A DNA stretch of 62,843 nt from a virus (taxonomy: Duplodnaviria; Caudoviricetes), in the IMG/VR virus record IMGVR_UViG_3300010362_000001, positions 1 through 62,843 of that record. One strand, 5' to 3'. Shown piece after piece: positions 4,991-10,409 of the stretch. Positions within the stretch are counted from its first letter, which is position 1. Each line of letters begins with the position of its first letter. The notes beneath the pieces were generated by a model. That model saw only the letters and a list, made by a program, of their open reading frames with translations. It was not told where the DNA came from and made no database searches. The position numbers and the translations under genes are program-made.

Positions 4991-5163
4991 ACAACGACGT
5001 TCTCGATTGTTATCGCTTGGCGCGCGAATATCATCAGAATCCGAACGTCTTTCTCGAAATGCCGATGAGCGAAGTGCGCATTCATATGGAGCGCACGATC
5101 GAGCTTGCATTGATTCGCGAGCGCGAGCAGCAACTGCGCGACGAAGACGACGGCTATGGCTGA
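4960..5163 (+). CDS. -1 frameshift extension of the tail chaperone (gpE'/gpGT-like)
   Basis: T TTT TTT slippery heptamer at 4960-4966 in the chaperone frame; the -1 frame stays open to 5163 (YRLAREYHQNPNVFLEMPMSE). Confidence 0.75.
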   Translation, partial: FFSAQSRGMVNNDVLDCYRLAREYHQNPNVFLEMPMSEVRIHMERTIELALIREREQQLRDEDDGYG

Positions 5164-8180: not shown

Positions 8181-10409
8181 ATGCCGGAAGTCGAGGAACT
8201 ACGGCTGGTCGTAACGCTGACCGATGACGCGTCGGCCGGCGTCGCAAAACTCAGGGAGGAATTGAAGCGGCTATCTGGCGGCGACAACGTCCAGGCGCTC
8301 GATCGCGTCACACGCCAGATGCAGGAGTACACGCGGCAAATCAAGCCGATGACCGAAGAGATGGGCCGCGCGTCGCGCGCGGCGCAAGCGGTCGGAGCTT
8401 CGATCGGCCGAATGGCTGGCGCGCTGGCGGGATGGTTCATCGCCAAGTTCACGCTCGATTCGCTGAAAAATTTTACCGACGAGATGTTGCGCCTGAATGC
8501 AGTGTCGCAACAGATCGGCATCGGCCCGGGTCGACTGAAGGGCATCGCCGATCAGATGGCGCAGATGGGCATCAATGCCGATCAGGCGCAGGGCGCGGTC
8601 GCCGATTTCACGCGCACCATGGCCGATCTCGATCGCCATGGCAGCCAATTAAAACAGGATTTGTTGCAGTCCGCGAAGAGCGATCCCGAGGCGATGGAAG
8701 CGTGGATCGCGCGCATGACTGGTTTCGCCGCCCGCGGCGATATGGAATCCGCCATTAACGAATTCGTTGAAGGTCTGAACAACATCTTCGAGGCGGAACT
8801 GCAACGCACCGGTTCGCGCACCAAAGCGGCCGAACTGGTCACGACGATGGCGGAACGGTTCGGCGGCGGGCAAACGCTGCGCATGATCGAAGGCAAGATC
8901 CGGCAGGTCTCGGACGAAGAAGAAAAACGCATCCAGCGGCGCATCGAACTGGCGAAAGAGTTCAACAGAGAATGGGTCACAAGCAAGCAGAAGATTGATG
9001 AAGTCATTGCCGGACTCCAGGAGCAATTGCTTCCGGTAATAGTTGAACTCAATCGGGCAATGGGGGAGTCCGGCGAGTCGTGGGGCAAATTCTTCGGCGC
9101 CGGGCTGGCCAAGTTTCTGACTGACGCGGCGGCGGTGATCAGAACCATCTCGATGCTAGCCGCAGGAGATCCTCTTTCGGCAATACTCTACGGATGGACA
9201 GGCGACGAAAAGAAAACCGAGGAATTAAAAGAACGGCTGCTCAAAGAAGATCCGGGCCTGTTGCATAAATGGTTCGGAGAGTCGTGGCTCTGGAGTCCCA
9301 CGCCATATACAGGCTCTGGCTCTGGAATGCCGGCGCGCTTCGCCGACATTGGCTTCACCGGCGAAGATGCCAACGAGGCGCTAGGTGAAGTCTCGACGTG
9401 GAATGAGCGGCTGATCGAGGAGTTGAAGCGGCTCAACGATTTCATCGGTGCGCCGGGCGGCATGGGCGGCGCTGTTGGCGCGCTGAGTCCTGGCGGCGGC
9501 GTGGGCGGCGGAGCCGGCGGCGGTATGAGCGCGGCCGTGGGCAACGCAACACTGGGCCGGATGTTCGGTAACGTCTTCGGCGGCGGCGGCGATGGCACCG
9601 GCAGCGGCGGCGGTGGCGGCGGTGGCGGCGGCGGAGGAGGAGACGGCGGCGGCGGCGGCGGCGGCGGCGGTGGAACGGGCCCGGTCACGCCCGCGACCGG
9701 GCCGGGCGAGATCGGGCCAGCCCAGGCGCTTGCCCTTGCGCGCCAGCGTCTCGGCGAGCATGAGATCCGCGATCAGGGAAAGTTGAGGGACTTCTTTCGC
9801 TCGCAAGGCATCCCGATCAACCCGGCGACGACCGCATGGTGTGCGGCGTTCGTCAATGCCAACCTGTCAGCGGCCCAGGTCAAGGGTTCGGGTTCGGCGG
9901 TTGCGACTTCGTTCCTGAATTGGGGGAGTGGAGTTCAAGCCAAGAACGTGCAAGCCGGCGATGTTGCGGTGATCGCGCGCGGGCGGCGTGCGGGCCAGAC
10001 TGGTGGGCACGTCGGCTTTGCCACGGGCAATACCCGGATGCGCAACGGCGTGCTTGAAGTCGAGATGCTGGCGGGCAACGAAAGCAATCAAGTCAAGACG
10101 TCATGGCGGCCGGCCTCTCAGGTCACGCTACGTCGAGCAAGCGATCGCGAGTTGGCCCACACGCCGCGCGGACCAGCGCAGCCAATCGTTGTGCCGCCGG
10201 TGGCGCAGAACTGGGTTGGCCCGACCAATAGTGACCTTAACCGTGCTGTAATTGATCGCCAGCCATCATCAGGACGGCGCGTCGAAACCAGCGGCAAGCT
10301 GCAGGTAGACGTCAACGCGCCGAGAGGAACGAAAGTCACGGCGGAAGGGTCGGGCGCATTCAACAAGACTGAGACCAATCGCACGACCGCGCCGGCATTC
10401 GAGGAATGA
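8181..10409 (+). CDS. Tape-measure-like protein 2 with a C-terminal TIGR02594/CHAP-NlpC-like cysteine peptidase
   Basis: Paralogous to TMP1 over the first ~310 aa; AWCAAFVN...SFLNWG...GHVGF...LAGNESNQV. Confidence 0.8.
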   Translation: MPEVEELRLVVTLTDDASAGVAKLREELKRLSGGDNVQALDRVTRQMQEYTRQIKPMTEEMGRASRAAQAVGASIGRMAGALAGWFIAKFTLDSLKNFTDEMLRLNAVSQQIGIGPGRLKGIADQMAQMGINADQAQGAVADFTRTMADLDRHGSQLKQDLLQSAKSDPEAMEAWIARMTGFAARGDMESAINEFVEGLNNIFEAELQRTGSRTKAAELVTTMAERFGGGQTLRMIEGKIRQVSDEEEKRIQRRIELAKEFNREWVTSKQKIDEVIAGLQEQLLPVIVELNRAMGESGESWGKFFGAGLAKFLTDAAAVIRTISMLAAGDPLSAILYGWTGDEKKTEELKERLLKEDPGLLHKWFGESWLWSPTPYTGSGSGMPARFADIGFTGEDANEALGEVSTWNERLIEELKRLNDFIGAPGGMGGAVGALSPGGGVGGGAGGGMSAAVGNATLGRMFGNVFGGGGDGTGSGGGGGGGGGGGGDGGGGGGGGGGTGPVTPATGPGEIGPAQALALARQRLGEHEIRDQGKLRDFFRSQGIPINPATTAWCAAFVNANLSAAQVKGSGSAVATSFLNWGSGVQAKNVQAGDVAVIARGRRAGQTGGHVGFATGNTRMRNGVLEVEMLAGNESNQVKTSWRPASQVTLRRASDRELAHTPRGPAQPIVVPPVAQNWVGPTNSDLNRAVIDRQPSSGRRVETSGKLQVDVNAPRGTKVTAEGSGAFNKTETNRTTAPAFEE

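Follow-up and report, generated by a model that had tools for sequence, protein, structure and literature searches.

Tape-measure proteins (TMPs) have been treated as rulers encoded by a single gene. What, then, is to be made of a phage in which two complete TMP genes stand one behind the other, each with a different putative wall-degrading enzyme? The locus that raises this question lies in the IMG/VR virus record IMGVR_UViG_3300010362_000001 (Duplodnaviria; Caudoviricetes), the whole 62,843 bp of which are referred to below as the window. The record is complete, with direct terminal repeats, and evidently represents a soil phage with a contractile tail. The explanation that we favour, and that we consider moderately probable, is that the two genes, TMP1 and TMP2, are intact, old and maintained tandem paralogues, whose products both load into the tail lumen and deliver complementary wall enzymes, likely as mixed trimers.

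Two complete genes with different cargo

TMP1 occupies positions 5156..8173 (1005 amino acids, aa) and TMP2 positions 8181..10409 (742 aa), both on the plus strand and in separate reading frames, with 7 nt from the TMP1 stop codon to the TMP2 ATG. The initial annotation of the region had described them as two full-length tape-measure paralogues, and both open reading frames (ORFs) are present exactly as it claimed, in the canonical TMP slot directly after the gene for the tail assembly chaperone (TAC), which TMP1 adjoins, and before those for the baseplate hub. Since the frames differ and TMP2 opens with the family's own N-terminus, the two do not represent one gene split in two, and a read-through or fusion, or a single broken gene, can be ruled out. 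Sequence matches to described TMP families are weak and confined to the N-terminal module, namely to phrog_8125 ('tail length tape measure protein', E 6.6e-5) for TMP1, and to phrog_2013 ('lytic tail protein', E 2.5e-9, residues 9-303) and the TMP family phrog_2276 (E 6.8e-4) for TMP2; none of the TMP models of Pfam and NCBIfam matched either protein.

The most extensive similarity between the two proteins is found in a conserved N-terminal module (N-module), which comprises residues ~1-331 of TMP1 (5156..6148) and 1-330 of TMP2 (8181..9170), as delimited by BLASTP, a family profile and the envelope of a family hidden Markov model (HMM). BLASTP aligns residues 5-328 of TMP1 with residues 3-326 of TMP2 without a single gap (186/324 identities, 57%, E 4e-123), and the shared motifs singled out by the initial annotation, LKNFTDEMLRLNA, AWI.RMTGFA and FEAELQRTGSRT, are found in both translations. 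A second alignable segment (E 0.005) consists of the ELKRLND.IGAPG stretch and the poly-Gly run likewise listed there as common to both; it reads ELKRLNDAIGAPG in TMP1 (residues 455-467, 6518..6556) and ELKRLNDFIGAPG in TMP2 (residues 414-426, 9420..9458) and corresponds to a family consensus, ..RLN..L.., located before the Gly-rich linker (hereafter the RLN segment). The similar C-terminal GK(I/L).VDV tail is also real, and in fact family-wide: an HMM of the C-tail, made with the final 55 residues of 14 family proteins, matches residues ~953-1003 of TMP1 (8012..8164, GKIKVDV...QPTQMEHA), residues ~701-742 of TMP2 (10281..10406, GKLQVDVNAPRGTKV...) and 167 sequences of our working set.

The N-module, the RLN segment and the C-tail are of equal size in TMP1 and TMP2, and the length gap of 263 aa is almost entirely accounted for by repeats and a Gly/Pro-rich linker (Gly makes up 34% of residues 346-765 of TMP1). 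The motif register reveals, in residues ~542-760 of TMP1 (6779..7435), six units of ~33 aa, PF(A/Q)GLPxIPG...GPNIT (in full PF(A/Q)GLPxIPGTGTFRPGGMVGPNIT), flanked by poly-Gly runs; at the DNA level, Tandem Repeats Finder reports a 99-nt period with 2.4 copies at 6983-7223. The other proteins of the working set (242 members) lack this motif.

Between the linker and the C-tail, the two proteins carry different domains. That of TMP1, residues ~762-918 (7439..7909), had been annotated as a SleB-like transglycosylase, and structure prediction supports this assignment at the level of the fold. A single-sequence AlphaFold2 (AF2) prediction of the TMP1 C-terminus was poor (predicted local distance difference test, pLDDT, 52.6), and we therefore relied on a model of residues 765-935 inferred from a 21-row alignment of family domains, which reached a pLDDT of 92.2 and a predicted template modelling score of 0.87. 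In a comparison with ~48,000 PDB representatives by VIA-align, the best chain was 4fet_A, i.e. SleB, the germination-specific lytic transglycosylase of Bacillus (Z 12.3, root-mean-square deviation 3.0 A, 116/122 residues), followed by another SleB structure, 4f55_A (Z 11.8), and only then by an MltG (Z 3.7). The top three Foldseek hits are all SleB (probability 1.00, with E of only 0.066-0.073). Glu807 (in the motif NEQG), Glu820 and Asn824 are invariant in all 21 aligned domains of the TMP1 type, which makes Glu807 and Glu820 candidates for the counterpart of the catalytic Glu of SleB. Sequence searches are less telling: PF07486 (Hydrolase_2) gave no TMP1 match in Pfam at E<=0.1, PDB sequence searches with either C-terminus or with a profile returned nothing meaningful, and the nearest clusters of a protein atlas, in which PF07486 occurs in 30% and 80% of members (scores 0.86 and 0.85), serve as a lead only. 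The TMP1 domain is thus supported as a SleB-fold domain of predicted lytic-transglycosylase type, rather than as a proven member of that family.

The TMP2 domain, residues ~505-655 (9693..10145), had been described as a TIGR02594/CHAP-like peptidase, an assignment that profile matches uphold. It is hit by phrog_1259 (E 8.2e-28, residues 504-651), by TIGR02594 (E 4.2e-16; 59.4 bits, below the cut-off of 70.55) and by CHAP (E 8.3e-4; 20.2 bits, below the cut-off of 26). Cys554 and His610, which we take to be the catalytic pair by analogy with the superfamily, are kept in 53 of 53 distinct family segments. A TIGR02594/CHAP-like cysteine peptidase of the NlpC/P60 type is therefore the supported identity of this domain.

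As the record is a metagenome assembly, it might be asked whether the pair is a mis-assembly of two strains, or whether one of the copies is unexpressed or non-functional; we consider this explanation largely refuted and highly improbable. Part or all of the stretch is present in four soil-metagenome runs, no RNA run being among those listed. A contig of 2781 nt from a sample (X1) that is possibly the source itself covers positions 6880-9570 with 0 differences, and a 266-nt contig from another sample and another study (X4) covers 8038-8303, again with 0 differences, so that the TMP1/TMP2 junction is bridged without mismatch in two samples. It is true that no single public contig among the four runs spans both genes end to end: the contigs break at 6583-6879 and 9571-9680, and 6670-6886 is almost uncovered. 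These breaks are expected, because short-read assembly meets GGC/poly-Gly runs there. A collapse of strains is an unlikely source of the pair, since the two N-modules are just 62% identical at the DNA level, the longest stretch common to both measures 18 nt, and eight other contigs show the same arrangement. The chimera that the initial annotation had named as a possible refutation thus failed to appear, and the TMP pair is real DNA. Against decay of one copy speak the intactness of both ORFs, the conservation of catalytic-type residues in both, and a ratio of non-synonymous to synonymous divergence (dN/dS) of 0.31 between the N-modules.

A recurrent pair in a family with swappable cargo

How widespread is this protein plan, and is the doubling peculiar to one phage? 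A profile made from the two N-modules retrieved, from 1.84 billion proteins, 366 cluster representatives at E<=1e-3 (194 at 1e-10), almost all of which begin with the module and have lengths of ~550-1400 aa. We classified 158 retrieved N-module proteins with purpose-built HMMs for the N-module (N), the TMP1-type domain (H2L), the TMP2-type CHAP-like domain (CHAP) and the last 55 residues (Ct). The most common architecture is N-Ct (55/158), followed by N only (45/158, many of them truncated), N-CHAP-Ct (29/158), N-H2L-Ct (18/158), N-CHAP (4/158) and N-H2L (2/158). Both domains are found on one chain in 5/158 proteins, as N-CHAP-H2L-Ct in four and as N-H2L-CHAP-Ct in one; the latter order also occurs in the TMPs (795-824 aa) of the single-copy loci L032/L033 and L043-L045. 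Pfam identifies further cargo in the same slot in relatives, namely Phage_lysozyme2, Amidase_2, SLT and Glucosaminidase, with Peptidase_M15_4 below the cut-off, which brings the slot to at least seven enzyme types. As differing enzyme domains occupy the same slot, we read the family as one with two conserved ends and swappable muralytic cargo, its plan apparently being a ~330-aa N-module, the RLN segment, a Gly-rich linker, the cargo and a ~50-aa C-tail.

Two variants are worth noting. One single-copy relative (L058/L059) encodes a TMP of 1618 aa, ~2x the usual length, which has one N-module, a SleB-like domain at residues 925-1078 and a C-tail; its sheath and tube genes are conserved as in other relatives. 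Proteins P0015-P0021, with lengths of 219-330 aa, combine an RLN-like segment or a Gly run with a SleB-like domain and a C-tail but have no N-module, and may result from gene calls broken at poly-Gly runs or exist as independent proteins.

To see whether relatives also have paired TMPs, as the initial annotation had proposed should be surveyed, IMG/VR contigs were scanned with a 10-row alignment, which yielded 74 loci falling into 48 clusters at >=95% identity. The gene order of sheath, tube, TAC, TMP, the N- and C-terminal parts of a gp43-like protein, gp44 and gp45 is kept in all 74 loci wherever the contig reaches. Two tandem N-modules are present in 8/74 loci (8/48 clusters), namely L004, L027, L066, L067, L071, L073, L074 and L076, with the second copy cut by the contig end in 4/8. 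A single TMP closed between TAC and gp43 was found in 39/74 loci (28/48 clusters), and the remaining 27/74 loci (12/48 clusters), being cut by a contig end, stay undecided; pairs thus make up 8/36 decided lineages. Outside these contigs, neither a megablast search with the region nor a tblastn search with the N-module matched any of 50,697 deposited phage records. A single-sequence scan of viral contigs produced 3 pattern matches and an alignment scan of genome contigs 339, none of which was confirmed, and since this includes all genome-contig matches, we have no prophage relative in named genomes and assign no host.

The paralogues within one genome share 30-67% identity in the N-module. A careful maximum-likelihood tree of 52 rows was inferred after dropping 22 N-modules >=95% identical to kept ones, and also without modules covering <200 profile positions. 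In the window (support 100/99), L004 (99/97), L066 (100/100), L076 (100/99) and L073 (99/96), each copy has the other as its sister, whereas the copy L027_a groups with single-copy L025 (98/91) and not with L027_b. The pair label undergoes 6 changes on the tree, at least five of them forced by well-supported branches. The recurrence may reflect either repeated duplication and loss or an old duplication with homogenisation, both of which the tree fits. Recent gene conversion between N-modules was considered, but no tract was seen, the longest identical runs being 10-27 nt in the nine pairs. In L067 and L074, which represent different phages, the downstream copies are 80% and the upstream copies 64% identical, as compared with 47-55% between upstream and downstream copies (the tree row labelled L074_a is the downstream copy); because like-position copies are the closer ones, the duplication predates the split of these two phages.

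In eight pairs, the N-modules show dN/dS of 0.19-0.43 at a synonymous divergence (dS) of 0.73-1.60 (dS being 1.27 in the window pair), while L076 is saturated. Both an N-module and a C-tail are present in both copies of all five complete pairs (the window, L066, L071, L073 and L076), and the upstream copy is the longer in 4/5 of them. These values indicate that both TMP copies are old, constrained and kept by selection. Measured from the stop codon of the upstream copy, the downstream copy starts after 7, 3, 1, -1, 0, -1, 8 and -1 nt in 8/9 pairs, and neither promoter-like nor terminator-like sites were found at the TMP1/TMP2 junction of the window, which suggests that the two genes are probably transcribed together and translationally coupled. 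The exception is L066, the sole pair with a long gap (~470 nt). A 169-aa ORF lies there (L066 7519-8028), and its N-terminus resembles an HNH endonuclease motif; a homing endonuclease may thus have inserted itself between the two TMP genes.

A possible sharing of one tail by two tape measures

How, then, could two such proteins serve one tail? We envisage that a whole-gene tandem duplication followed by divergence of the cargo gave rise to two TMP versions. The N-end of each would bind the chaperone and contact the tube, and the C-end would dock onto the hub; because TMP1 and TMP2 keep both end modules, the same chaperone, the same baseplate hub and the same tail-tube lumen can be expected for both proteins. 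Both paralogues would most likely share the three positions in the lumen, and their difference in length would be taken up by the flexible Gly-rich linkers. Upon sheath contraction, both would be expelled into the periplasm, where the SleB-fold domain of TMP1 would cut the glycan strand and the NlpC/P60-CHAP-type peptidase of TMP2 the peptide stem or cross-link, so that the peptidoglycan is opened by two complementary activities. Mixed filling is favoured by the probable co-expression, by the competition for the same partners and by lengths that differ almost only in linker and repeats, and the usefulness of the two-enzyme combination is suggested by the single-gene relatives that combine both enzymes on one chain.

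Association of the N-modules was also modelled, with two copies of the TMP1 N-module and one of the TMP2 N-module as the input for complex prediction. The scores were 0.38, 0.28 and 0.39 (median 0.38), as against 0.00 for the best of three controls; the runs had at least 29% of contacts in common and a partner pLDDT of at least 60. The verdict is 'weak support', and the result cannot separate a hetero- from a homo-oligomer. For calibration, 58 of 80 solved complexes and 2 of 110 mismatched pairs attained the mark of the method, with scores of <=0.60 in just 7 of the 80 and in both of the mismatched pairs that passed.

The explanation by mixed trimers has several observations to contend with. 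A single TMP is enough in 28/36 decided lineages, and the tail design hence does not require a second copy. Nor is the two-enzyme rule general: both copies of L066 carry a CHAP-like domain, no firm enzyme domain was found in L027a, L071b, L073b (which has a weak match to an endolysin family) and L076b, and the Pfam and PHROG scans of pair members at the other loci identified few cargo domains altogether. In the window itself, the TIGR02594 and CHAP scores of TMP2 are below threshold, TMP1 is missed by PF07486, and no obvious Shine-Dalgarno sequence precedes TMP2. The complex prediction, with its verdict of 'weak support', must be counted on the same side, and if tails were measured by the full length of the chain, a trimer of 1005-aa and 742-aa proteins would be at odds with itself.

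In another explanation, the two proteins never meet. Each tail would contain a homotrimer of one paralogue, and the phage would produce two classes of particles differing in the lumen enzyme and possibly in tail length, as a form of bet-hedging on wall chemistry or growth state. The 263-aa difference and the position of the longer copy upstream in four of the five complete pairs fit this idea, a divergence of the N-modules to 57% identity could suffice to prevent mixing, and the muralytic motif of the TM4 TMP has been described as mattering just for stationary-phase cells (PMC1796659). However, nearly all of the difference in length falls into the Gly/Pro-rich linker and not into conserved modules, proteins with the same end modules would be rivals for one chaperone and one set of hub sites, the tight stop-to-start coupling would lead to co-expression in every infected cell, and the N-modules are predicted, if weakly, to associate. 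Two tail lengths, the alternative offered by the initial annotation, look weaker than a hetero-oligomeric tape also because family members with near-identical sheath and tube genes have TMPs of anything from 676 to 1618 aa. On balance, we consider two particle classes unlikely.

Somewhat less probable still is a division of labour in which only one paralogue measures the tail, the other being an ejection protein of TMP descent, for which N-module and C-tail would be no more than a signal for loading into the lumen, where it would lie beside the TMP much as effectors do in contractile injection systems. A parallel is available in RcGTA, in the tail channel of which a TMP trimer was reported together with density attributed to a single, separate peptidoglycan peptidase (PMC7296036), and the at least seven enzyme types of the cargo slot would fit end modules acting as a general loading cassette. 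Yet both copies have a complete N-module, RLN segment and C-tail of the same sizes, without any sequence mark that would tell the ruler from the passenger, and a trimeric hub would offer only three equivalent docking sites for C-tails.

Finally, a divergent second TMP might let some particles or entry events escape host exclusion or defence proteins that recognise TMPs as the DNA enters. The SNIPE nuclease was described as associating with tape-measure proteins during injection, with escape mutations found in the TMP (preprint 10.1101/2025.11.03.685801), and traits under an arms race are expected to be gained or lost repeatedly, as the pair has been. The paralogues, however, differ most in their enzymatic cargo and not in a cheaply swapped surface, the SNIPE data concern siphoviruses, and nothing in the window ties the pair to a defence system. 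We therefore regard redundancy against host defence as very unlikely.

Relation to known tails

The tail module to which the pair belongs closely resembles that of phage Mu in its order. PHROG and Pfam matches delimit a contractile tail module at 2599-16094, the genes from the sheath through to the gp43-like protein being on the plus strand, with the sheath, the tube, the TAC with a T7 slippery site, TMP1, TMP2, a gp43-like protein, the gp44 hub and the gp45 spike following one another. The sheath gene (2599-4164; phrog_165, E 9.8e-166) and the tube gene (4204-4569; PF10618 Tail_tube, E 1.5e-32) precede the chaperone gene (4583..4990), which is similar to Mu gp41 and P2 E (PF10109 Phage_TAC_7, E 4.5e-7; phrog_166). 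The run TTTTTTT at 4960-4966 is, in the chaperone reading frame, a perfect -1 slippery heptamer, and the -1 frame remains open until a TGA at 5161-5163, which overlaps the start of TMP1 (ATG); we infer a -1 frameshift of the chaperone from the slippery run and the open frame. The resulting layout of a chaperone, a frameshifted chaperone and a tape measure is the classical one, described for other phages (PMC3556154). A 6-bp hairpin at 4940-4968, directly before and not after the slippery run, was flagged as terminator-like by a terminator scan.

Just 3 nt after the end of TMP2, the first gene 3' of the pair begins, a gp43-like gene (DNA circularisation protein N; PF07157 DNA_circ_N, E 1.5e-15; phrog_184) that consists of two ORFs, 10413-10967 and 10972-11640 (184 and 222 aa). 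The N-terminal half of phrog_184 matches the first ORF and the C-terminal half the second, and because relatives show the same order of two ORFs, the split looks conserved rather than caused by a sequencing error. The gp45-like spike gene (12882-16094) encodes PF06890 at residues 22-98, fused to an extension of ~970 aa with PHROG matches to minor tail, tail fibre and 'peptidase' families, which might act as a further, third enzyme at the tail tip or bind a receptor. Far from the tail module, the 792-aa ORF at 57387-59765 matches the head maturation protease phrog_80 (residues 142-278) and the major head protein phrog_617 (residues 135-792), and thus looks like a protease-capsid fusion.

With Mu, the window shares the order of the tail genes (gp41 chaperone, gp42 tape measure, gp43 N, gp44 hub, gp45 spike) and the families Phage_TAC_7, DNA_circ_N, Gp44-like and Phage_Mu_Gp45; sheath, tube, TAC_7, DNA_circ_N, the gp44-like hub and the gp45-like spike are all found in the Mu order. 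Mu has a single gp42. The rest of the window genome, unlike the tail, is not Mu-like, as it includes a phrog_9 terminase large subunit, a primase/helicase and the direct terminal repeats.

A peptidoglycan hydrolase on a tape-measure chain is by itself not new. Like the window proteins, the TMPs of mycobacteriophage TM4 and of the Caulobacter phage phiCbK carry one; phiCbK gp95 has a CHAP domain and was described as bringing the hydrolase along in the tail, where it is thought to become active after ejection (PMC3556154). TM4 and phiCbK, however, have one TMP gene, whereas the window phage has two complete tandem paralogues with different enzyme classes, and in its family the doubling is recurrent. 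SleB has the same fold as the TMP1 domain over essentially the whole catalytic domain, and the invariant Glu that lies in a motif of the N-terminal helix may have its counterpart there, but the two are only 12-14% identical, and the domain sits on a tape measure in one case and with a spore-cortex binding domain in the other. In RcGTA (Rhodobacter capsulatus), a TMP trimer and the wall peptidase g14 were reported to share the tail lumen and to be released before the DNA (PMC7296036); that peptidase is small and unrelated to its TMP, while the second candidate for the lumen in the window phage is a full TMP paralogue.

Cargo loading in extracellular contractile injection systems offers a further parallel, in that variable cargo could be guided into a contractile tube by conserved elements at the termini. 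The likeness to these systems is an analogy and not a demonstrated homology, the cargo in the window consisting of muralytic enzymes within a TMP scaffold of a DNA phage. We did not find any description of two complete tandem TMP paralogues with different enzymes in one phage, or of the recurrence of such pairs, in the full-text literature (subscription journals and supplements being outside its scope); the apparent matches concerned pairs of chaperones, homologues in other phages, or TMP genes that are alternatives in different genomes. TMPs with muralytic domains were known already; recurrent tandem TMP paralogues with different enzymes may be new, an earlier report being possible.

A broader and more tentative proposition can also be put forward, namely that the end modules are a general lumen-loading cassette, that the pair forms a hetero-oligomeric tape whose elastic linkers span the same tube, and that the arrangement has been gained or lost at least five times. 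If true, the contractile tail of these phages would deliver a chosen combination of enzymes, amounting to a natural modular cargo device in a DNA phage, and the rule that each tail has one ruler protein would have an exception. Since the case is built on metagenome sequence alone and one TMP is enough in most relatives, the pair is better seen as a variant than as a new principle. How TMPs oligomerise and leave the tail is poorly known, and the repeated occurrence of tandem paralogues with conserved ends and different muralytic cargo constitutes a natural experiment in this respect. It opens the questions of which part of the chain measures length, whether unlike chains can occupy the three positions in the lumen, and how glycan- and peptide-cutting activities combine in the penetration of the wall; the swappable slot, with its variety of enzyme types, is also of practical interest for the engineering of tail-delivered enzymes.

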